Shown here in pieces: positions 166 through 14,392 of a DNA stretch of 15,337 nucleotides. Numbering within the stretch: position 1 is the stretch's first letter; each line of letters begins with the position of its first letter. Source of the DNA: a virus (Duplodnaviria; Heunggongvirae; Uroviricota; Caudoviricetes); IMG/VR virus record IMGVR_UViG_2534681673_000006, positions 1 to 15,337 of that record. One strand, 5' to 3'. The notes under the pieces are model-generated. The model searched no databases and was not told where the DNA came from. It was given only the letters and a program-made list of their open reading frames with translations. The translations under genes and the position numbers were made by a program.

Positions 166-620
166 TTTAATTAAGCAATTTTCACTGAGAAAGTGCCAAA
201 ATTCGCAAAATGACTACACCAGTGACTACACCGTTCGGTGCACTGTATGAAACAACGTGGAACAAATAGGCACAAGAAATATAAAGGCGGGTAATTTTAA
301 GGAGGCGTTGCTGTCGATATGGGGATCCCCATAACGGGGCTACCGGATTTTTTTTCCGGTTAACCTTTAATCAGCCAGGTGGGTTTTACATACCCTTGAT
401 CACCGTAATGATGATCCAGATGTGCACCTTTTCCACCAATGGAGGAAAAGCTCCAACCGTAACGATGATCGCTATGGTTGCCTCGATGGTCTGCGTGGTC
501 ATTATGACCATTCAGCCAGTGACCTTAATCAGAATTTTTCGCTAAAAAATGACGTTGGCCACGTCATCCGGAAAGCACAAAATCACGTCGATTTTTAATG
601 AACGGTTAAACCGTCTTTTT

Positions 621-4275: not shown

Positions 4276-4610
4276 TTTTCCGCGCCCTCACGACAAAGAA
4301 TTTCAAGGCGTGTCCTGGCGGCATCCGGCAGCGGCTGCCCGATGATATTCAGTACACGCCCCGCCAGCGGCCCCGTACTGACCTTTATCCGACTGGTGGC
4401 GTTGATGTCCTTCCGGTACCGTATCCAGATCCTTACGGTACCAATCGCCAGCTCTGCGCCCGATGAAATGGCCTCCTTGCTGCTGATCATGTTCACGCTT
4501 GCCCAGAGTGTGTGACCGTCCTCCCACGTTTCGAGTATTTCGCCCGTCATGGCTCTGGTCTGTTTCAGGGTCTGAATCGTTATCCTGTCACGCAGTCGCC
4601 CTATGTTCAT
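4272..4610 (-). CDS. Head closure / head-tail adaptor protein (SPP1 gp16 / HK97 gp9-like)
   Basis: Start taken at ATG 4610 (MNIGRLRDRITIQ...), which overlaps the portal stop as ATGA. Size and IRYRKDI motif fit head-tail joining proteins. The ORF track's longer start at 4652 lies inside portal. Confidence 0.65.
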   Translation of the reverse strand: MNIGRLRDRITIQTLKQTRAMTGEILETWEDGHTLWASVNMISSKEAISSGAELAIGTVRIWIRYRKDINATSRIKVSTGPLAGRVLNIIGQPLPDAARTRLEILCREGAEK

Positions 4611-5818
4611 TCCGGTTTTTCTCCCTCGCTGATTTTTACTTCCTGTTTCCATGCCTGGCTGAACTCATCACCACCATCACGCGGTGACAGTCCTTCACGT
4701 TCGCGGGCTTCGTTCGGACACATAACGCCGGATTTGATGCCGCGCTCATAGGTGGCAAAGCGTTCGCCAGGTGTGGCCCGTAACAGGTCCGCGCTGTCAA
4801 ACTCCACCTGATACCGGATACCAGGTACAGGCGAGGCCACCAGCAGGGCGTTTTTTATCTGCTGCTCAAAGTTCGCCAGCCACGGGCGCATCGTCATGGT
4901 GAGAAATGCGCGGCTTGCCTCGCTGAAATTGCTGTAGGTGCTGTTGCTGTATTCCTGCAAAAAAATCGGCGAGACGTTGAACATTCGGGCGATGTCTTCA
5001 ATGGTGAAGCGACGGGAGGCCAGCCATTCAGCATCCTGATTACTCATGCCCAGCTGCTGATAGCTCATACCCCCTTCAAGGATGGGCGTTTTTCCGGCGT
5101 TTCTGGCCCCTTTGTAGCGTTCCAGTGCGGCTAATGCCTGTTTGCCCTTCACGCCGTCCAGCCATTCGCCTGACGTGATAACCCCTGCCGCCATCATGCC
5201 ATCACGCATCACGCTCGCGCCGTGGCGTTGTTGGGCCAGCCCAAGCCCCAGCGATTCGCGGCAGATGGTTACAGGTGAGCGCCCCATAAAGCCGTCATCC
5301 GTGGAGTAACGAAGGTGAAGTACTTCCCACGGTAAATAGTTGCGGGTGTTTCCGGTGTAGGCGTCAGTGATGCAGTAGCGCCAGTTGTGTTCGCCTGTCT
5401 GCTCCACGTTCACCGACTGCGGCGGGTAAGGATGTAAAGCCGCCGGAAAACCATCACGCCCCCACTGAATCACCGCATAAGCATTACCGTTTAACAGGCA
5501 GTGGCGGATCATCATTCGCTTAAACTGGTAGGGGGTTTGCCATGCGTTCGGGCGCTCGTTGAGGATGTGATCGACCGGATGAGAATCAAGCCACTCGCGG
5601 GCCTCCTTCCCCTTCTCATTGCGTACCAGGTACAGGTAACACGGCATGGTAGCCACCGCCTCAGAGATGACCGTGACGGCGTTCATGACGGCGGGCAGTG
5701 ATTCCGCTGTCCCCGATGATACGTACTCACCCGCCCCCGTGTTCGATGTGCCAGCCAGCGCCATAAATTCATCAAGCGTCATGCTGCGCTGCTCTTTTTT
5801 TCTTCTGAAAGGCCACAT
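4607..5818 (-). CDS. Portal protein, HK97 family
   Basis: 403 aa; LLNGNAYAVIQW, LHLRYSTDDGFMGRSP, GKTPILEGGMSYQQLGMSNQDAEWLASRRFTIEDIARMFNVSP match the HK97 portal family pattern. Strong GGGGGTG SD. Confidence 0.85.
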   Translation of the reverse strand: MWPFRRKKEQRSMTLDEFMALAGTSNTGAGEYVSSGTAESLPAVMNAVTVISEAVATMPCYLYLVRNEKGKEAREWLDSHPVDHILNERPNAWQTPYQFKRMMIRHCLLNGNAYAVIQWGRDGFPAALHPYPPQSVNVEQTGEHNWRYCITDAYTGNTRNYLPWEVLHLRYSTDDGFMGRSPVTICRESLGLGLAQQRHGASVMRDGMMAAGVITSGEWLDGVKGKQALAALERYKGARNAGKTPILEGGMSYQQLGMSNQDAEWLASRRFTIEDIARMFNVSPIFLQEYSNSTYSNFSEASRAFLTMTMRPWLANFEQQIKNALLVASPVPGIRYQVEFDSADLLRATPGERFATYERGIKSGVMCPNEAREREGLSPRDGGDEFSQAWKQEVKISEGEKPE

Positions 5819-5819
5819 A

Positions 5820-6392
5820 TCACACCCCCGCTAAATCCACCCACCAGCGGCGATTATCCGCACGCGGCATTTTTTCGGGGTGCTGCTCATACAGGGAACG
5901 GCGGGCCAGCTCCACGCCGGAATCAGGGTAAGCCGGAACGGATGTAACGGTAATTTCGTACAGTTCCGCCACCAGCACGGTGCGCACGCATGGATCTGTT
6001 GTGGTATCCCATACATCCTTACGGGAACGAAAGCCAAAGCTCATGCCGGATATATCACCACGTTTAACCAGTTCGATAACGTCGCGCCCTGTGCTGGTAT
6101 CCGGTGGGGTCAGTTCAAAGCGTAACCCTGTTTCGTCCTCTTCCAGTTTCAGCGTGCCGGAACGGGTACGCCCCAGTAACATGCTGTGGTCATGCTCATA
6201 CAGGCCGCGAACGTCATTACCCGCTGCAAGCCATTCAGTAAACGCTCCCCGCTGGAATTTTTCGTAAAACTCACCCCATAACAGTTCTGAAAGCTTATCC
6301 CAGCGAACAACGTAGCCCGTCAGCGTACCGGCTCCGCTGGTGGTGATTTCCGATGACCGGATTTCCATACTCTTCATAATTTTTTCACCCAT
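5820..6392 (-). CDS. Prohead protease, HK97 family (peptidase S78/U35)
   Basis: 190 aa; LTGYVVRWDK...GAFTEWL...LYEHDHSMLLGRT...ISGMSFGF...TSVPAYPDSG fits the HK97 prohead protease pattern. Start ambiguous: ATG 6392 or ATG 6377 (the latter has a GGGTG SD). Confidence 0.8.
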   Translation of the reverse strand: MGEKIMKSMEIRSSEITTSGAGTLTGYVVRWDKLSELLWGEFYEKFQRGAFTEWLAAGNDVRGLYEHDHSMLLGRTRSGTLKLEEDETGLRFELTPPDTSTGRDVIELVKRGDISGMSFGFRSRKDVWDTTTDPCVRTVLVAELYEITVTSVPAYPDSGVELARRSLYEQHPEKMPRADNRRWWVDLAGV

Positions 6393-6402
6393 AAAACACT
6401 AA

Positions 6403-6420
6403 AGGGGCTTTTAAGCCCCT
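6403..6420 (-). promoter_or_regulatory. Hairpin between capsid and protease genes; candidate partial terminator or mRNA stabiliser
   Basis: aggggctt/aagcccct inverted repeat in the 39-bp capsid-protease gap, followed on the minus strand by uaguguuuu. Read from sequence. Confidence 0.35.
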
Positions 6421-6431
6421 TCTGTATGCTG

Positions 6432-7589
6432 TTAATCGTCGTCCTGTGGCAGTTCCAGAATCTTGATCGCGTTCGAATCCACCACGCCACCGCCTAAATA
6501 TTTCTGCGTGAAAATTTTGATGAAACCCGGCTCTGTGAGGTTGTCCGGTCTGGTGCGAACACCTGTTTCGTGATCAACAATGTAGTAACCGCGTTTGAAG
6601 TCACCCAGGGCAATAACGTTATCAGGCATAAACTCCAGATATTCGACCGGAAGGCCCAGCAACGTATCAGGATCACCCGCCTGTAAACGGTCGCGCCAGA
6701 TGTAATCACCGTTCGCGTTCTTCACCTTCTGAAGTTTTGCCGCCGTCGTGGAGTTAACCACCCAGACCGCGTTTTTGCGGTATTTTTTACGTAATGCAAA
6801 TTTCAGGTCGATCAGCGGGTCCGCAGATGTCCACGCCAGAGATTCGGAAGGTTTAATTACCTGCAACGTACCAAAATCACGCTCTTTGTCGTTCTTCTCT
6901 GCACGGGGTACGGATAAAAAACCTTTTGCTTTTTTGTCACCGTCGCCCACAACCAGATCGCTTTCTTCGGTTTCCGTGAAGGTGTCGCCAATCTCACCCG
7001 TCAGCCATGAAAGGATGTCCACATCGGAAAAATCCACGATTTCCTGTGTGGTGCGCGGGTACGCATAGACCGGATACAGCTTAATGCTCACCTCGTTAAT
7101 CTGCGGGGTGCTGGTCTGTTCGCGTGTCTTACCCTCTTCACCGTGGTTAACGGTCGCACCGCCAGCGGAAACAAGCTGCTTAAACTCGTTGCTGCTGATT
7201 TTCTTCACGGTACAGATGCGGCGCATGGTGGACTCATCCGCCAGCATTCGCATGATTTCGGTGTTCAGCTCGGGGATAACGGTATAACCACCATCAGCGG
7301 GAACGCCTGTACTTAATGCGCGGGTTTCACCCGTCAGAATGTAGTTTCGTAGTTCTGCGGGGTCAGTGGTCTGACTGCTTTTACCTGGCTTGCTGCGCTC
7401 TTCGTCTGCAATGGCTTCAAGGCGGGAAATGTCTTTATCGAGGGATTCAGCTTTAGCGCGTAATTCGTCAAATTTTGCGCCCTCAGCATCGTTAAGACTG
7501 CGGTTTTCTTTTTCCGCGTTCTCCAGCATGTCACGCATCTGATTTTTAATGGCGGTTTTCTGCTGGCGTAATTCGATTATTCTCTGCAT
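6432..7589 (-). CDS. Major capsid protein, HK97 fold, with N-terminal coiled-coil delta (scaffold) domain
   Basis: Start taken at ATG 7589 (MQRIIELRQQKTAIKNQMRDMLENAEK...), a typical delta-domain N-terminus, then a ~280-aa HK97-like body. The ORF track's GTG at 7637 would run the frame through a terminator hairpin. Confidence 0.8.
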   Translation of the reverse strand: MQRIIELRQQKTAIKNQMRDMLENAEKENRSLNDAEGAKFDELRAKAESLDKDISRLEAIADEERSKPGKSSQTTDPAELRNYILTGETRALSTGVPADGGYTVIPELNTEIMRMLADESTMRRICTVKKISSNEFKQLVSAGGATVNHGEEGKTREQTSTPQINEVSIKLYPVYAYPRTTQEIVDFSDVDILSWLTGEIGDTFTETEESDLVVGDGDKKAKGFLSVPRAEKNDKERDFGTLQVIKPSESLAWTSADPLIDLKFALRKKYRKNAVWVVNSTTAAKLQKVKNANGDYIWRDRLQAGDPDTLLGLPVEYLEFMPDNVIALGDFKRGYYIVDHETGVRTRPDNLTEPGFIKIFTQKYLGGGVVDSNAIKILELPQDDD

Positions 7590-7626
7590 AAAAAAAGTCC
7601 TGGGGTTAAGTAAGGAACTCCAGGAC
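7590..7626 (-). terminator. Strong rho-independent terminator whose U-tract abuts the capsid ATG
   Basis: Minus-strand RNA: GUCCUGGAGUUCC-loop-CCCCAGGAC (11-bp stem, one G.U) followed by UUUUUUU then AUG. No SD between hairpin and start. Confidence 0.6.
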
Positions 7627-7679
7627 GCGGCAAACACTCAACCGTTTTTCATAAGGAAATCAGCAATCGCACCGATCGT

Positions 7680-7727
7680 TTTCCCGCCTGGTAATGAATA
7701 TTGGCGGGCACATTAACAGGCGGGAAA
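7680..7727. promoter_or_regulatory. Perfect 11-bp inverted repeat tttcccgcctg (26-nt spacer) caggcgggaaa upstream of the head operon
   Basis: Read from sequence at 7680-7690 and 7717-7727. Lies between the two minus-strand terminators. Confidence 0.45.
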
Positions 7728-7802
7728 GTGGCCCCAGCGTCCTGGCACCACGGGCGAGAATAATCATGATTCAGTTCGGGTAAAATATGCCGATCCGCTC
7801 AG

Positions 7803-7830
7803 TGAACAACGTGGAACAACCACGAACAAA
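7803..7830. promoter_or_regulatory. Three 10-bp phased repeats (minus strand TTGTTCGTGG TTGTTCCACG TTGTTCAC); candidate late promoter / activator site
   Basis: Plus strand gtgaacaacgtggaacaaccacgaacaaa. The 15-mer aacaacgtggaacaa (7805-7819) is identical to 251-265. A weak sigma70-like TTGTTC-16-TATTTT follows on the minus strand. Confidence 0.4.
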
Positions 7831-7837
7831 TAATTTA

Positions 7838-7870
7838 CAAAAAATAACAAAAAGCCGGATTGCTCCGGCT
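7838..7870 (-). terminator. Rho-independent terminator ending the early (replication) operon
   Basis: Hairpin agccgga-ttgc-tccggct at 7853-7870, 5 nt after the stop of the last early gene, followed on the minus strand by UUUUGUUAUUUUUU. Confidence 0.6.
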
Positions 7871-7875
7871 GTTGA

Positions 7876-8148
7876 TTAGCTGTCTGTGTAATTACGCCAT
7901 ATTTCATCGCTTACACCATCCATACCCATTTCAGCATAAGTGCGATCGACTGCCTTTCTCAGGTCTCCGAAGTTATCCGGCGGCTCCGGTGGCCTCTGTG
8001 CCTTCCTGGAACATTCCAGCCGTCGCATCGTAACCTGATGCCGTTCCTTGTCTGTCTCCACCAGTTGCATGACTTCACCCCATCGCGCCGCCGCCCTCCG
8101 GTAAAAGCCTTTTGCCTCGAGTTCCTCCGCTATGCGGTCATGTGCCAT
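7876..8148 (-). CDS. Small regulator-like protein, 90 aa, possibly PerC-family (tentative)
   Basis: Start at ATG 8148 with GAGGGGG SD, 10 nt after the SSB stop. IAEELEAKGFYRRAAARWGEVM resembles, from memory, PerC-type small activators. Last gene before the head-operon control region. Confidence 0.45.
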   Translation of the reverse strand: MAHDRIAEELEAKGFYRRAAARWGEVMQLVETDKERHQVTMRRLECSRKAQRPPEPPDNFGDLRKAVDRTYAEMGMDGVSDEIWRNYTDS

Positions 8149-8158
8149 CGTCACCCCC

Positions 8159-8569
8159 TCAGAACGGAATATCATCACCGTAAGGGTCATCGCCTCCCGC
8201 TGGTGGCTGATTACCCTGTGTGCCTGTGGCTTTGCGTCTGTTCCCGCCAGGACGTGCCGCGCGGGCACTGATTACGCTGTCCGCAATAACCTGATACCCC
8301 TGCCGTGTTTCCCCGTTCTGTCCGGTCCACTGGCTTACCTGCATCGTGCCGGATACGCTGGCAACATCGCCTTTTTGATGTTTAGCCAGGAAATCGGCCT
8401 GTTTGCCAAATGCGATAACCGATAACCATAACGTCGCCTGTCCGTCATGTGCCTGGCTGCATGGCAACGATACCGCCATACGCGCCAGAGTCATCGGTGT
8501 GCCCTTGCTGCTCTGTTTTACCAGCGGGTCGTCCACCAGCCGCCCGTAAGCTGCAATTTGTGCTGTCAT
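8159..8569 (-). CDS. ssb: Single-stranded DNA-binding protein
   Basis: 136 aa; N-terminal OB-fold pattern (IAAYGRLVDDP...WLSVIAFGKQADFLAKHQKGD...VSQWTGQNGETRQGYQVIADSV), Gly/Pro-rich linker and the canonical acidic tail DDIPF. GAGGTGG SD. Confidence 0.85.
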   Translation of the reverse strand: MTAQIAAYGRLVDDPLVKQSSKGTPMTLARMAVSLPCSQAHDGQATLWLSVIAFGKQADFLAKHQKGDVASVSGTMQVSQWTGQNGETRQGYQVIADSVISARAARPGGNRRKATGTQGNQPPAGGDDPYGDDIPF

Positions 8570-8578
8570 ATTGCCACC

Positions 8579-8884
8579 TCAGTGAAGCGATCCGGCGTTG
8601 TTCTTTTTCATCTCTTCCATCATTTTTTCAGTGAGCATTACGCACTGAAAACCCATGCTTTTGATGTCTACGGGTTTCATGCCTTTGTCTGTGGATATCA
8701 CAGGCAGAATATCCTGATACACATCGCGGTCAGGGTAACTAAGCACACAAAGCGCCCATGATGCCACGGGTGAGGATCCTTCGTCTGTTTCAACCCACCA
8801 GCCTGGTGTAGCTGCGCTTATTTGCAGAATCGTGATCCGTCCGTTGTGCTTGTAAAATTTTTCACCAAATTTTGGTTCGCTCAT
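8579..8884 (-). CDS. Hypothetical protein, 101 aa
   Basis: ATGA overlap with the upstream gene and strong GGAGAGGTGG SD. No recognisable domain. Confidence 0.55.
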   Translation of the reverse strand: MSEPKFGEKFYKHNGRITILQISAATPGWWVETDEGSSPVASWALCVLSYPDRDVYQDILPVISTDKGMKPVDIKSMGFQCVMLTEKMMEEMKKNNAGSLH

Positions 8885-9132
8885 GATTCCACCTCTCCGG
8901 TTTTAACGTTGATTGTTGTTACCTGTTCCGCTTCGGCAATCTCCCGTTCTGTCAGCGTGGCAAAGTTTGCCGCCGCTGTGGTCATGAATGCGCTTATCAG
9001 TTCGGGATGCTCCTTCGCGTATCCTTCCCCCGCGTGGCGGTCTATCGTTCTGATTGCCACCTTTAAAGCGTGCTCTGTCATGTCTAACGCTTTATATTTT
9101 GGCTGTGTTCTGTCTCTGCGTTTTTGTGTCAT
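8881..9132 (-). CDS. Hypothetical protein, ~83 aa (start uncertain)
   Basis: Start taken at ATG 9132 (GGGGAG just upstream) because the longer ORF to 9327 would run through the iteron array. ATGA-coupled to the downstream gene. Confidence 0.4.
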   Translation of the reverse strand: MTQKRRDRTQPKYKALDMTEHALKVAIRTIDRHAGEGYAKEHPELISAFMTTAAANFATLTEREIAEAEQVTTINVKTGEVES

Positions 9133-9145
9133 CTCCCCACCTATA

Positions 9146-9335
9146 CCCACTTTTACCCCCCACTTTTCACAATTCCCCATCTCGTTAAAGGCGTGGGATT
9201 TGTAATTTTTATCATGCTGTTTCATAAGGATTTTTTTGCTCCCCACTTTTTGGGATGTATACAGGTCAAAAAGTGGGGGATTGTGTTTAAATTTTGTTAA
9301 ATTCCCCATACCCACCACTTTTGCCACCCACTTTT
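9146..9335. repeat. Iteron array (CCCACTTTT, at least 6 copies, both orientations); candidate replication origin
   Basis: Copies at 9146, 9159, 9242, 9269 (inverted), 9314 and 9327, including a perfect IR ccccacttttt-17 nt-aaaaagtgggg. AT-rich spacers. Directly downstream of the replication ATPase stop (9335). Confidence 0.55.
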
Positions 9336-10318
9336 TACAGTGGCCCTACATCATCGCCGTCAACATAGATAACGCCGTCTTTTTCCAGCTTGCCCAGCCA
9401 GCGCCGGAAGTGCTTTATTTCGTACCCCAGTTTTTTCATGTCATCACGTAACAGCGGGATCGTGCACTTGTCGCCGTTCTGTGTGCGTGAACGGATACAC
9501 CCCCATAGCGCGGTATGGTTTTCCGTCTTGTTGCCTGCCTCTTCGATGCGCTCCAGTTCAACGGGAGGGCGCGGCTTATCCACCACCACCAGCGACGAGA
9601 TTAACTCCCCGTCAGCGTCGGTAAAAAGCTCCACCACCCGCAAATCATAGGCAGCCTCTTTGAGTTCCTCCGCGTCCTTCATTTTGGTGCATGAGATAAC
9701 CAGCGCTTCGCTTCCTGCGTCCTCCCTGCGTATCCGGTATTCAGCATCCAGCGAAGCACGAAATGCACTGGAACCGCGCGCGCCTTTCGTCTCATCCTTG
9801 CCGGAATGGTGAACCACCAGCACCGTGGCCCCTGTGCGTCGTTTCAGTTCGTCACAACCACGGATAAACGCCCCCATATCACGGGAATCATTTTCATCAT
9901 TCCCACCAAAGCAACGCGCCAGCGTATCCAGAATAATCATGCGTACAGGTTTACCCGTTTCCCGCTCCACCTGACGGGCAGCGATAACCATTTCATCAAC
10001 ATCAAGCGGGGCAGCCGGAAAGATGGGGCGGTTTACCAGATACAGATTTTTCACCTGCTCATCGTGCACAACCTCCCAGGCTTTTACACGACGCGGAACA
10101 CCTATACCGCCTTCACCAACCACATAGAGAACCGCACCATGTGCAACCCTGCGGCCTCCCCACTGGCGACCAGTGGCAACATGGCACGCCCACGATCCGG
10201 CAAGGAATGATTTATAGGACCCGCTAGCCCCGTATATGCTGCATAGCGATACCGCCGGAATAATCCCCTTAACCACGTAATCCAGTTGCGTGTCATATCC
10301 GGTAGATCCAACGCTCAT
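9335..10318 (-). CDS. Replication ATPase, AAA_25 / RepA-like (RecA-fold helicase or loader) with C-terminal winged-helix-like domain
   Basis: 327 aa; Walker A GASGSYKS, Walker B MIILDT, VVHHSGKDETKGARGSSAF motif typical of AAA_25 proteins. ATGA overlap with upstream gene. Confidence 0.75.
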   Translation of the reverse strand: MSVGSTGYDTQLDYVVKGIIPAVSLCSIYGASGSYKSFLAGSWACHVATGRQWGGRRVAHGAVLYVVGEGGIGVPRRVKAWEVVHDEQVKNLYLVNRPIFPAAPLDVDEMVIAARQVERETGKPVRMIILDTLARCFGGNDENDSRDMGAFIRGCDELKRRTGATVLVVHHSGKDETKGARGSSAFRASLDAEYRIRREDAGSEALVISCTKMKDAEELKEAAYDLRVVELFTDADGELISSLVVVDKPRPPVELERIEEAGNKTENHTALWGCIRSRTQNGDKCTIPLLRDDMKKLGYEIKHFRRWLGKLEKDGVIYVDGDDVGPL

Positions 10319-10734
10319 CGGTAGCGTGGTTTTTCGCTGGTGGTTTTTTCTTCCGCCGGCTCTTTCCCGCGCACCCGTTCCAGGTATTCGCGCCAGTTCT
10401 CCCGCATATGGCTGTGCATCCCTTCGGGGTAATAATTCGCATCAGTTACACCCGCCGCCGCCAGCTTGTGCGCAATGGCATTAATATTTGATGGCCTGAT
10501 GTGGCCTGCCTTGTACAGCCGGACACAATAGCGCCCCTCGTCGATGATTCTCAGGTCTGCCAGTTCATCCAGTTGATCATCAGCCAGCACAACGGGAGGC
10601 ACATTATCGCCAGCCAGTCGCCCGTCCTGTTCCTGCCACTGTTTCGCATGTGCCCAGGCATCACTACCCGCAAAAATAATGACTTCGGTCATCTTGTCGT
10701 AAGGCTGTTTTTTTAAGTTCGGTGCGCTTTTCAT
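10315..10734 (-). CDS. Hypothetical protein, 139 aa, translationally coupled to the replication ATPase
   Basis: ATGA overlaps at both ends. No recognisable domain; position suggests a replication accessory role. Confidence 0.5.
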   Translation of the reverse strand: MKSAPNLKKQPYDKMTEVIIFAGSDAWAHAKQWQEQDGRLAGDNVPPVVLADDQLDELADLRIIDEGRYCVRLYKAGHIRPSNINAIAHKLAAAGVTDANYYPEGMHSHMRENWREYLERVRGKEPAEEKTTSEKPRYR

Positions 10735-11030
10735 TTCTTGCCCCTGAATCCGTTAATCATGGTTTTCAGCTTCTGGATGTTTGCCCGTGCCCTGGCGTTG
10801 CTGGTGGGCACGTTATGCGGCGCGGTCTGTACCAGAGAAAAATCACGCCGGAACTGATAAACAGGCATCACGCAATCATATTCGTAACCTTCACGGCGGT
10901 AAGTTACGCACCGTCCCGCCACGCCCTTAATCATTACCGTGCCGCCGTACTGGTCGCGGTAAATATCACCGCGCGTAAATTTAGGGTGAGTGTTGCCACT
11001 GGCAGTTAAGCCAGAATATTTAAGTTTCAT
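10731..11030 (-). CDS. Hypothetical protein, 99 aa
   Basis: GGAGA SD 9 nt upstream of ATG 11030; ATGA-coupled downstream. No recognisable domain. Confidence 0.5.
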   Translation of the reverse strand: MKLKYSGLTASGNTHPKFTRGDIYRDQYGGTVMIKGVAGRCVTYRREGYEYDCVMPVYQFRRDFSLVQTAPHNVPTSNARARANIQKLKTMINGFRGKK

Positions 11031-12279: not shown

Positions 12280-12353
12280 TGTCAATACTTAACATCTCAT
12301 TTTTTTTGCTGTATTGTGTGCGCCCATAAAGTCCATTTAAGTGAGGTGCATCA

Positions 12354-12551
12354 ATGTCTAGCGGTAACACAAACAACAAATCAGCAAAGAAAAATATTCG
12401 ATTCCCACATGAGCTTATAGATGGGATTGATGCCAGCGTTGAACAAGAAAAATTAACTAATCCTAGTGCTAATTTTTCCGCATGGGTCTTAGATGCCTGT
12501 GGACGCAAATTAAAATATGAACAGCGCCGGAAGGCCAAAGAATCAGAATAA
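12354..12551 (+). CDS. Ribbon-helix-helix (CopG/Arc-like) DNA-binding protein, cassette 1
   Basis: 65 aa; GAGGTG SD 5 nt upstream. KNIRFPHELIDGIDASVEQEK...SANFSAWVLDACGRKL fits an RHH strand-helix-helix. Paralogous to the 13113-13292 protein. Confidence 0.65.
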   Translation: MSSGNTNNKSAKKNIRFPHELIDGIDASVEQEKLTNPSANFSAWVLDACGRKLKYEQRRKAKESE

Positions 12552-12600
12552 TCACTATCAGCGCCGTGGTGTGAGGTACTACGGCGCATTGCTTTACAGG
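12527..12600 (+). repeat. ~74-bp near-identical junction element (second copy 13268-13341) spanning the RHH gene 3' end and a hairpin
   Basis: aaggccaaagaatcagaataat(c/t)actatcagcgccgtgg(t/c)gtgaggtactacggcgcattgctttacagg. Stem gcgccgtgg/ctacggcgc with a GAGG-containing loop. Confidence 0.55.
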
Positions 12601-12608
12601 GCAGTAAC

Positions 12609-12836
12609 ATGACCAACAACACACTATCACCAATACAAGACACGCAAACGCAAGATGATGAAATCATCCGGCAAAGGCAGTCAGAAGCCTGCGCCAGACT
12701 TGAGGAAGAACTAACCAGAACAAAAATACCACCACCAGCGCCGCGCTTAGTTCCACCAGAAAAATTTGCCCTTGAAGATTTTGTCGATAAATACCCACGG
12801 CGGCTTAAATCCGGCAAAAACCGACCGCCAGGATGA
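12609..12836 (+). CDS. Small partner protein, cassette 1, 75 aa, unknown function
   Basis: Starts MTN; C-terminal motif FALEDFVDKYPRR is shared with the cassette-2 partner (FVLDEFLKKYSR). Proline-rich middle. No known domain. Confidence 0.5.
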   Translation: MTNNTLSPIQDTQTQDDEIIRQRQSEACARLEEELTRTKIPPPAPRLVPPEKFALEDFVDKYPRRLKSGKNRPPG

Positions 12837-12999
12837 GTGCACAAAACCGAACTATGAAACGGATTATTCCGTTTCCGGGGCGTTTGTGTGTGTATAAAGA
12901 GTAAGCTATGCTCTTTTATAGCCATAATCGTTACCTCAATTAATGGTTTGGTTAGACGCCCCGTATGTGTTCCCATCACTGCGGGGCGTTGTTGTTTTG

Positions 13000-13092
13000 G
13001 GTGTATTTCACCTTTATTTTTAAATCTACATTCAGGTGAAATACACCGCAAGACTTTTTTTATCTTTTTTTTTGCGTATACTGAAATACACC
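13000..13092. promoter_or_regulatory. Operator/promoter of cassette 2: perfect 13-bp inverted repeat ggtgtatttcacc / ggtgaaatacacc plus a third half-site overlapping a TATACT -10
   Basis: Arms at 13000-13012 and 13035-13047 (22-bp spacer); tgaaatacacc at 13082-13092 directly after TATACT (13077-13082). AGGAG SD follows. Confidence 0.55.
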
Positions 13093-13112
13093 GATTATCA
13101 GGAGAACCAGAA

Positions 13113-13292
13113 ATGGCAACAGGTGCAAAGAACGCAAAATCACAAATGACAACGGTCAGAATCCCGCATGAGGTAATGACCGATATTGAGCAACTTAAAG
13201 AACCTGGCGAAAGTACCGCCGGATTTCTAGTTACGGCAGCAAAAGGCGAGATCAAACGCCGCCAGCGCCGCAAGGCCAAAGAATCAGAATAA
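13113..13292 (+). CDS. Ribbon-helix-helix DNA-binding protein, cassette 2
   Basis: 59 aa from ATG 13113 (AGGAG SD). TTVRIPHEVMTDIEQLK...TAGFLVTAAKGEIKRRQ is paralogous to cassette 1 with divergent DNA. Shared C-terminus RRKAKESE. Confidence 0.65.
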   Translation: MATGAKNAKSQMTTVRIPHEVMTDIEQLKEPGESTAGFLVTAAKGEIKRRQRRKAKESE

Positions 13293-13349
13293 TTACTATC
13301 AGCGCCGTGGCGTGAGGTACTACGGCGCATTGCTTTACAGGTACACACA

Positions 13350-13553
13350 ATGACCAATAAAGAATCAACCAATACACCATCGCAAAAAACGAACAGAGAG
13401 CACGAAAATATGGCGCTCGAGCATGAATCAGAAAGATTCGCTCCATGCGCTTTTGTCCTTGATGAGTTTCTAAAAAAATATTCACGTTCTGAACGGATGA
13501 AAATGGCAGCACAATACGGCCCCAACAAGCAAGGTAATTGCCCACCAGCCTGA
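13350..13553 (+). CDS. Small partner protein, cassette 2, 67 aa, unknown function
   Basis: Starts MTN; same position relative to the junction hairpin as the 12609 gene; shares the F.L(E/D)(D/E)F..KY.R motif. Confidence 0.5.
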   Translation: MTNKESTNTPSQKTNREHENMALEHESERFAPCAFVLDEFLKKYSRSERMKMAAQYGPNKQGNCPPA

Positions 13554-13621
13554 TCACGGTTATCATGTTCGGGCTTATGATTGTTGACACATACGGCGCA
13601 GCGGGTTAATTGTTCAGAAAG

Positions 13622-13829: not shown

Positions 13830-14018
13830 TTAGTGAACTGCCTTGCAGCTATCCTTCCAGGCCAAAACCTCAGATAAAGACCAGCCAACAGAACGCCCGC
13901 CAAGTTTACGACGTGATGGGAATTGTCCGGCCTTTTCCAGGCGGTAGCGGCATGAGCGGCTAAGGCCTGTTAGCTTTTCGCATTCTTTTTCACGTATAAA
14001 CCGATCAGTGCTTAACAC
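13830..14018 (-). CDS. alpA: AlpA-family transcriptional regulator / excisionase-like HTH protein
   Basis: 62 aa; RFIREKECEKLTGLSRSCRYRLEKAGQFPSRRKLGGRSVGWSLSEVLAWK matches the AlpA/Xis-type HTH pattern. Apparent GTG start with GGGGG SD. Adjacent to integrase. Confidence 0.75.
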   Translation of the reverse strand: MLSTDRFIREKECEKLTGLSRSCRYRLEKAGQFPSRRKLGGRSVGWSLSEVLAWKDSCKAVH

Positions 14019-14179
14019 TATTGCCCCCTTTCGTTTCTTAAAGAGTTATTTCGTGTTCTATTGCGTTGGGATGTGTCTGATTGTGTCAGGATGATTCAGA
14101 GTTGGCAAATGTTGGTGTCGCATGGTTTACAGAAAGAGGAATAATCAGGATAAAATCATTTAAATTCATGTTAATACAA

Positions 14180-14209
14180 AGGCATAAAATCTTGTTTTAT
14201 GCCTTTTTT
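14180..14209. terminator. Rho-independent terminator between int and alpA, possibly bidirectional
   Basis: Stem ggcataaaa/ttttatgcc (9 bp perfect), loop tcttg. TTTTTT follows on the plus strand; the interrupted run UUUGUAUU follows on the minus strand. Confidence 0.55.
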
Positions 14210-14308
14210 CGCACGCTTTAACGCGTAATTCACTAATGTATAAAAAACCAGCTGAGCATTAAAAATCAGTAACTTACAAATCTGTATTCTTTTTGGCCTC
14301 TTGTTCGT

Positions 14309-14375
14309 GATTGTGTCACGTTGTTGCACATTGTTTCACGTTGTATCTGTGCACTTATCCAGTATGCGCATACTG
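14309..14375. promoter_or_regulatory. Four 10-bp phased repeats (consensus nnCACGTTGT) followed by perfect 16-bp palindrome CAGTATGCGCATACTG
   Basis: tcgtgattgt gtcacgttgt tgcacattgt ttcacgttgt at 14309-14352; palindrome at 14360-14375. The 10-mer gattgtgtca recurs at 14079-14088 in the alpA promoter-proximal region. Confidence 0.5.
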
Positions 14376-14392
14376 AAAAAACACGAAAAAAA

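Follow-up and report, generated by a model that had tools for sequence, protein, structure and literature searches.

Gene content of the element and the perC locus

The window, i.e., the whole stretch of 15,337 nucleotides analysed here, is a capsid-forming PICI (cf-PICI) of the EcCIEDL933 type inserted in tqsA, the 5' fragment of which occupies positions 1-165; a RefSeq-annotated, 99.5%-identical copy of the element sits between the split halves of tqsA. Nearly all sizeable genes lie on the minus strand. In the direction of transcription they run from int (cut by the end of the window) through alpA (PF05930), small orfs with DUF4222 and a RepA/primase-type replication gene to two small orfs, ssb and perC, which are followed by the genes for the major capsid protein, prohead protease, portal, head closure, connector, HNH, TerS and TerL. 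The open reading frames and family scans show int, alpA, rep and a full head/packaging module within ~15 kb and no tail or lysis genes, matching the cf-PICI architecture and definition typified by EcCIEDL933 (preprint 10.1101/2022.09.08.507074). The genes and signals that concern perC are the following.

6432-7589, minus strand: major capsid gene (PF05065, E=2.1e-61; RefSeq 'phage major capsid protein'), the first head/packaging gene
7843-7870, minus strand: intrinsic terminator after perC (AGCCGGAGCAATCCGGCT followed by a T-tract; terminator scan and folding), also the module junction
7876-8148, minus strand: perC/pchE-like CDS, 90 aa plus stop (ORF list, Pfam PF06069, RefSeq WP_000929753.1)
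8149-8161, minus strand: ribosome-binding region of perC (GAGGGGG), overlapping the ssb stop codon at 8159-8161 (from the sequence)
8159-8569, minus strand: ssb (PF00436, E=6.6e-16; TIGR00621), directly upstream of perC in a shared transcription unit
13830-14018, minus strand: alpA (PF05930, E=5e-18), a rival candidate regulator of the head operon

The initial annotation had described a 90-residue open reading frame with an EELEAKG...RRAAARW motif, which is indeed present at 7876-8148, with the correction that it lies on the minus strand. Its ATG is at 8148 and its TAA at 7878-7876 (ORF list), and a GAGGGGG Shine-Dalgarno sequence stands 6 nt before the start codon. The ssb stop codon precedes this ATG by 10 nt, a gap that fits co-transcription, as was found by 5'-RACE for the O157 allele, where a polycistronic ECs1586-ECs1587(ssb)-pchE mRNA starts 10 nt upstream of ECs1586 (PMC7369912). 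Directly 3' of the perC stop codon lies a GC-rich terminator hairpin (7870-7853) with a folding energy of -13.3 kcal/mol (z=-4.6), its 24-mer being 100% conserved in EcCICFT073 and duplicated around an orf74 cassette in O157. perC is the last cistron of an ori-proximal transcription unit (small orfs, ssb, perC) that is closed by this strong intrinsic terminator. The O157 mRNA is active in uninduced cells and is lowered 2-3 fold by SOS (PMC7369912). The earlier description of perC as the last gene of an early operon was therefore right about its operon-final position, as the O157 RACE data show, but the unit is constitutive and ori-proximal rather than purely induction-dependent and early. The GC content of perC (55%) is similar to that of ssb, so that perC is not a low-GC moron.

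Several other features of the element were observed alongside perC. The replication gene (9335-10734, minus strand) consists of two ORFs, one N-terminal of 139 aa and one AAA_25 of 327 aa, with an ATGA overlap at 10315-10318, whereas its counterpart in RM10042 and EC4115 is one RepA-family gene of ~469 aa. The N-terminal part has strongly diverged from RM10042, which marks the replication gene as mosaic, and its split form could represent either two genuine genes or a frameshift. Between alpA and the early genes, on the opposite (plus) strand, two tandem two-gene cassettes occupy 12350-13560, each encoding a 65-134 aa protein that ends in ...RRKAKESE and then a 67-75 aa orf; in RM10042, the annotation of the corresponding region includes a YlcI/YnfO family protein. 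A permissive Rfam scan of the whole window gave no match in the head-operon leader, its sole match being a sub-threshold one to BSnc120 (a Brucella sRNA) at 14161-14242 on the minus strand, in the alpA upstream region (27 bits, gathering score 114, E=0.011), which is most likely a hairpin matched by chance.

Family, allele and predicted fold of the perC product

The product of perC begins MAHDRIAEELEAKGFYRRAAARWGEV and reads in full MAHDRIAEELEAKGFYRRAAARWGEVMQLVETDKERHQVTMRRLECSRKAQRPPEPPDNFGDLRKAVDRTYAEMGMDGVSDEIWRNYTDS. The Pfam profile PF06069 (PerC) aligned with residues 1-90 over model positions 1-90 (E=2.3e-44), and the score of 150 bits against a cut-off of 22.6 places the match far above chance; PHROG 994 was matched with E=1.3e-45. 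Family membership was judged by whether the curated gathering score was exceeded over the whole ~90-aa domain, and the 90-aa product exceeds it over that length. The RefSeq entry WP_000929753.1, labelled 'PerC family transcriptional regulator', is identical to the product, and the identical gene is annotated under this accession in the near-identical genome of E. coli O43 RM10042. The resemblance to PerC-type activators, which the initial annotation had read from a motif, is thus confirmed by the open reading frame, both profiles and the identical RefSeq entry.

Among characterized relatives, PerC of the EPEC plasmid pMAR2 is collinear with the window protein at 41-42% identity (BLASTP, 87 aa, E=3e-25), and the copy in O157:H7 Xuzhou21 shares ~94% of its amino acids and the same synteny. 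The name PchE was attached to one partial database match of the product. Assignment to the PchE subgroup (group 3) rests on the 94% identity to the Xuzhou21 copy together with the place after ssb in an island of the OI-51/Sp7 type. Judged by its sequence, the 90-residue gene is an already annotated and already known PerC-family regulator, an allele of O157 PchE.

The PerC family is small, with 242 representatives at E<=0.001 in a profile search of 1.84 billion cluster representatives. Homologues of perC were found in 936 of 5,426 complete E. coli genomes and on 143 plasmids; by tblastn, deposited phage genomes gave matches in just 2 of 50,697, both weak, so this subgroup is rare among them. 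Across 17 perC alleles, with identities down to 61%, 32 positions are invariant, and full-length homologues stand at the same position in Pantoea, Lonsdalea, Erwinia and Chimaeribacter. One could regard perC as a functionless hitch-hiker kept through its linkage to ssb, since it is optional among PICIs and a C-terminally altered 82-aa allele of the CFT073 type is in circulation. The intact reading frame with its strong ribosome-binding site, the invariant positions, the full-length homologues in four other genera and the published phenotypes of PchE all speak against such a remnant, which we consider highly improbable.

In four of the compared loci (L004-L007, from Pantoea, Lonsdalea, Chimaeribacter and Erwinia; ~6000-11000), the PerC homologue directly follows a primase of ~930 aa and precedes a lipoprotein-like gene, two small orfs and a protein of 860-1140 aa that looks tape-measure-like by eye. 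They represent a different type of element in which PerC occupies the same module boundary.

The AF2 model of the product has five helices and a pLDDT of 84, predicting a small all-helical protein without a recognisable DNA-binding domain. Searching the PDB with this model in Foldseek returned no match at E<=0.001, the hits short of significance being weak, TPR-like helical hairpins, and a sequence-profile search of the PDB gave nothing below E=1.9. A five-helix model with no relative in the PDB would fit a non-canonical DNA or protein binder. In the Pfam scan, PerC was the sole match at E<=0.01. The ANR profile NF033650 aligned with residues 6-52 at 18 bits (E=0.0019, i.e., ~0.002) against a cut-off of 32, and by this curated criterion the product is not an ANR member.

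The head-operon leader and the linkage of perC to late modules

From the perC stop codon to the capsid ATG (7589) there are 286 nt (7590-7875), which contain the structured leader of the head operon and one repeated motif that recurs elsewhere in the island.

250-275, minus strand: TTGTTC-type repeats ~100 nt inside the island end (att arm), with a 15-mer in common with the leader
7590-7626, minus strand: hairpin (GTCCTGG...CCAGGAC) followed by U7, -14.1 kcal/mol, z=-4.0, abutting the capsid ATG
7590-7852, minus strand: head-operon leader with an unusually stable RNA fold (z=-5.27)
7804-7829, minus strand: three perfect phased TTGTTC repeats with a 10-bp period, after the TTTGTAAATTAT box in the leader
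7830-7841, minus strand: TTTGTAAATTAT box at the 5' end of the leader, a single exact match in the window
14301-14390, strand unassigned: TTGTTC-type repeats in AT-rich DNA between int and alpA (alpA promoter region)

The placement of perC just before a terminator-gated head operon, as claimed in the initial annotation, agrees with what we find, namely the terminator at 7870-7853, a second hairpin with U7 and the capsid ATG at 7589. On the coding strand of the leader (7590-7852) there is no sigma-70 consensus at the scan threshold, and with one hairpin after perC, this lack of a consensus site and the hairpin-U7 at the capsid ATG, 'terminator-gated' is a fair structural description. The hairpin at 7590-7626 sequesters the only SD-like AGGA of the leader, and in locus L057 its stem is retained while the loop differs; the same applies to a long CCCGCCTG...CAGGCGGG hairpin at 7681-7726 (minus strand). 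The leader as a whole is 97% conserved in Xuzhou21 and RM10042, is partly alignable to L057, L052 and L059, and has a GC content of 47% (41% over its first 96 nt). No LexA box was seen in it by eye. Its structured RNA could serve attenuation, translational control or processing. The TTTGTAAATTAT box is common to the PerC-bearing L057 and the PerC-less L052, L059 and L069.

Two further motifs were considered and set aside. A 10-bp palindrome, AATCATGATT, is present in the head leader and in the late leader of EcCICFT073, but since it is mutated in the closest relatives (AATCATGAGT in Xuzhou21, AATTCTGATT in EC4115) and is not enriched, we dropped it as an operator candidate. A TTACCC repeat in L052 and L059 was rejected as a leader motif after it was not found in L069 or L070.

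This arrangement is what one would expect if PerC were the late-gene regulator of the satellite, activating a weak promoter in the 286-nt leader or allowing read-through of its own terminator and the hairpin-U7, a role proposed from the gene's position. perC immediately precedes the head operon, from which two terminator-like hairpins separate it, and a leader without a consensus sigma-70 promoter implies that some factor is needed. In addition, perC moves jointly with its terminator and the pair is found before two kinds of late module, and perC is retained in all close relatives. Expression data point the same way, in that pchE and the head genes shift in parallel in strain PA20: the Sp7 head genes are transcribed in uninduced cells and drop alongside pchE after 12 h of high-dose SMX-TM (supplementary RNA-seq, PMC5931665), with log2 fold changes of -1.46 for pchE, -2.31 for orf74, -2.69 for the capsid, -2.57 for the protease and -2.27 for the portal gene (supplementary table, PMC5931665). 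This is a correlation only, which could reflect PchE-dependent expression or, equally, transcription reading through from the same upstream promoter or a general, island-wide effect. Control of the head operon by PerC, if real, would give Gram-negative capsid-forming satellites their first described late-module regulator, and a family known as virulence regulators would be recast as housekeeping genes of mobile elements.

To assess how closely perC is tied to the head operon, we compared the junction in the window with that in EcCICFT073, EC4115 (a classical PICI) and Xuzhou21 (a cf-PICI). Across the four elements, nucleotide identity is 92-97% for ssb, perC and the 24-nt terminator. Similarity to the classical PICIs ends exactly past the terminator, where the other late module starts (lambda-type capsid, decoration genes, Rpp/TerS). 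Among 52 PerC-bearing loci, identical PerC alleles precede both kinds of late module; one allele is found in L015 and L061 (cf) as well as in L137 and EC4115 (non-cf), and the 82-aa CFT073-type allele lies upstream of both cf and non-cf modules. Since identical alleles precede unrelated late modules, PerC is not co-adapted with a particular leader, and it reassorts freely with late modules at the terminator.

Within the close relatives the linkage is constant. Capsid, leader and perC are contiguous in 351 complete E. coli genomes; none of 60 records drawn as a spread sample from the 828 that matched had the head module without perC; and all IMG/VR loci with a capsid at least 97% identical and enough upstream DNA had a PerC match (weak and partial in L029). 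However, close relatives of the head module, in E. coli genomes and IMG/VR alike, are at least 95% identical to each other, so the constant presence of perC may reflect shared ancestry or linkage. In five loci with 66-70% identical capsids and the same head-gene order (L051, L052, L055, L056 and L058; with rep and DUF4222), there is no PerC between rep and the capsid gene. By broad family HMM, PerC was found in 6 of 80 primase-anchored PICI loci and was absent from 26 of the 27 capsid-forming loci within this sample. Divergent cf-PICIs thus keep the same head-operon order without PerC, and absence from most related late operons is unlike a dedicated late regulator.

Another small gene keeps closer company with the head operon. 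Of the 27 divergent cf-PICIs, 21 encode a phrog_1957 homologue (74-91 aa) directly before the capsid gene, for example at 6649-6873 in L010 (Xuzhou21), 6647-6871 in L009, 4013-4273 in L052 and 4494-4769 in L058. In the O157 elements of Xuzhou21 and EC4115 it forms a 330-nt cassette with a 74-aa orf and a copy of the terminator on each side, between pchE and the late leader; this cassette is absent from the window (between 7852 and 7853), having been lost or never present. The phrog_1957 orf is thus conserved next to the head operon more often than PerC. The PerC-less L052 also has, between its orf74 homologue and the leader, a 136-aa opposite-strand gene with TSRQGTDGRV-type repeats (4307-4717, minus strand), which is probably accessory.

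The repeats in the leader point to a different regulator. In the window there are 11 instances of TTGTTC-N4-TTGTTC (with <=2 mismatches), where 1.9 would be expected, and 0 of 200 shuffles gave as many; besides the sites listed above TTGTTC-type repeats are found at 12708-12854. In L001, L008, L009 and L010 they are present at both island ends and in the int-alpA region (L001, 17061-17129; L008, 12946-13001; L009, 12190-12279 and 13585-13653). Among these four related islands, only the capsid-forming elements have them in the late leader, and they are absent from that of the classical PICIs with the same PerC. The last TTGTTC of the leader could serve as a -35 element (TTGTTC-16-TATTTT). A search with exact 11-mers for leader motifs shared with the att and alpA regions in PerC-less cf-PICI lineages gave nothing above chance. 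AlpA switches on its own promoter as well as PICI genes further downstream, and PICI induction depends on it (PMC6092414); it is needed for induction and transfer of PICIs including EcCIEDL933 (10.1101/2022.09.08.507074). The repeats are probably binding sites for AlpA or arm-type sites for Int, and their shared presence in the leader, the att arms and the alpA promoter region points to control of the head operon by AlpA (or Int). We infer that AlpA (or Int), acting through the leader repeats, is a more probable driver of the head operon than PerC. If so, excision, autoactivation of alpA and expression of the head genes would be linked, and the repeats shared by the leader, att and alpA regions provide a concrete candidate for what switches on cf-PICI head genes. 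AlpA of P. aeruginosa, a Q-like antiterminator, was considered as a model for PICI AlpA and rejected; its DNA contacts lie at residues 128-142 and it is far larger than the 62-aa PICI protein (PMC9371919), and it is kept only as a loose promoter-plus-terminator analogy.

Taken together, the distribution of PerC, its reassortment and the leader motifs disfavour, although they do not refute, the proposal that PerC is an activator or antiterminator of late genes, and we regard this role as unlikely. Beyond the absence from divergent cf-PICIs and the unrelated leaders behind identical alleles, the sole repeated motif of the leader is shared with the att arms and the alpA region and is missing from classical PICI leaders with the same PerC. 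Expression of pchE in uninduced cells is poor timing for a late switch (PMC7369912), the protein bears no similarity to regulators of the Q, Ogr/Delta or RinA type (Pfam, Foldseek), and a leader with 47% GC is unlike the very AT-rich known targets of Pch proteins (PMC4764244).

Function of PerC and comparison with known systems

What is published on PchE suggests that PerC acts on the host. Overexpression of PchE represses csgD/curli, eae and lpfA and raises fliC 20-fold, and its host phenotypes derive mostly from such plasmid overexpression (PMC6265319, PMC7369912). Its effect on ler/LEE1 is <2-fold or nil (PMC5931665; PMC11773190, citing Porter 2005). PchE and phage structural genes have been placed together in OI-51 (PMC3378721). 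The related PchA relieves silencing by H-NS, StpA and Hha at very AT-rich DNA and has no recognisable DNA-binding domain (PMC4764244). By analogy with the 94%-identical O157 allele, the unit containing perC would have basal transcription in an uninduced lysogen, dropping 2-3 fold on SOS. The protein would act in trans on AT-rich, H-NS-bound host promoters, as expected from the biology of the family and shown for PchA, with a net outcome like that of PchE, i.e., csgD/curli, eae and lpfA down, flagella up and little effect on LEE1. The gene itself would travel with the ssb end of the replication module as an optional regulator and not as a dedicated switch of the head operon. Our analysis thus favours perC as an optional, host-directed (lysogenic-conversion) regulator that probably acts through H-NS-bound AT-rich DNA. 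The suggestion that such proteins cross-activate host virulence loci is borne out as far as the family's tie to virulence regulation goes, but not for LEE1/ler, on which the PchE subgroup has little or no effect (PMC5931665, PMC11773190).

PerC could instead act within the island or on the helper phage as a modulator at the protein level, either as an H-NS anti-silencer or as an ANR-like anti-activator, for instance at the alpA promoter, where it would set the induction threshold, or by interfering with a regulator of the helper. The region upstream of alpA is the lowest-GC stretch of the window (29-36% GC) and of the kind bound by PchA (PMC4764244), the weak N-terminal similarity to ANR has likewise been noted for the LEE1-repressing EcCIMP1_025 (PMC11773190), and the helical-hairpin model would suit a protein-binding scaffold. 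The ANR score is nevertheless below the curated cut-off, and most PICIs manage without PerC. Moreover, when the post-ori genes of EcCICFT073 were cloned singly, only c1503 blocked lambda (whether perC was among the clones is unstated; PMC6739421), which argues against strong interference with the helper by PerC, and we consider this role quite unlikely. It is tempting to speculate that PerC, produced from the constitutive ori-proximal transcript, is the satellite's own counter-silencer, keeping H-NS away from the AT-rich alpA promoter region or the start of the late leader, or promoting read-through of the terminator that accompanies it. If this rather improbable scenario were true, PerC would set the readiness of the island to fire and the strength of its late module, and the effects on curli, flagella and LEE would be side effects.

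The useful results are negative and contextual, in that PerC is optional in these satellites and reassorts at the terminator, and that the head leader instead has its repeats in common with the att arms and the alpA promoter region. perC as an annotated PchE allele was already known, while the idea that it regulates the head operon is unproven and disfavoured. Known late regulators, namely lambda Q, P2 Ogr/P4 Delta and RinA/LtrC/ArpU of Gram-positive phages and SaPIs, resemble PerC by position only, as products of a small gene before a terminator-preceded head operon. No sequence or fold similarity to any of them was detected (Pfam, Foldseek against the PDB, PDB profile search), and with one conserved Cys the protein has no zinc finger of the Ogr/Delta type. 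Families of late regulators are expected to occur with their operon, whereas PerC is absent from most related head operons, as the cf-PICI loci described above show.

The closest known system is PchE itself (ECs1588 of O157:H7 Sakai, in Sp7/O-island 51/CP-933C, i.e., the cf-PICI EcCIEDL933), with which the window shares the order ssb, pchE, terminator and head operon. The window protein differs by five to six amino acid changes, the island sits in tqsA whereas the O157 element lies next to phoQ, and the O157 element has the extra 330-nt orf74 (phrog_1957) cassette between pchE and the leader, which the window lacks. EPEC PerC, encoded by perABC on the EAF plasmid pMAR2, shares family, length, collinearity and the place as last gene of an operon. 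It activates LEE1/ler, in contrast to the PchE subgroup with little or no such effect (PMC5931665; PMC11773190, citing Porter 2005), and it belongs to a plasmid virulence operon, whereas PerC of the window belongs to the replication module of a satellite.

EcCIMP1_025 of the classical PICI EcCIMP1 is likewise a PICI-borne PerC homologue that has been treated as an accessory virulence regulator, and is ~40% identical to the copies in EcCIEDL933 and EcCICFT073 (PMC11773190). According to its published description, it silences LEE1 in Citrobacter rodentium, and ANR-like behaviour was proposed by the authors (PMC11773190). Proteins of the ANR (Aar) family are also small, helical and of similar size, although the window protein falls under their 32-bit cut-off. 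PchA/B/C, encoded by lambdoid prophages of EHEC, belong to the same family; by published description they form group 1, are SOS-induced, where pchE is repressed, and activate ler >4-fold (PMC5931665). Relief of H-NS silencing of the PchA type is the best mechanistic model available for PerC of the window (PMC4764244).
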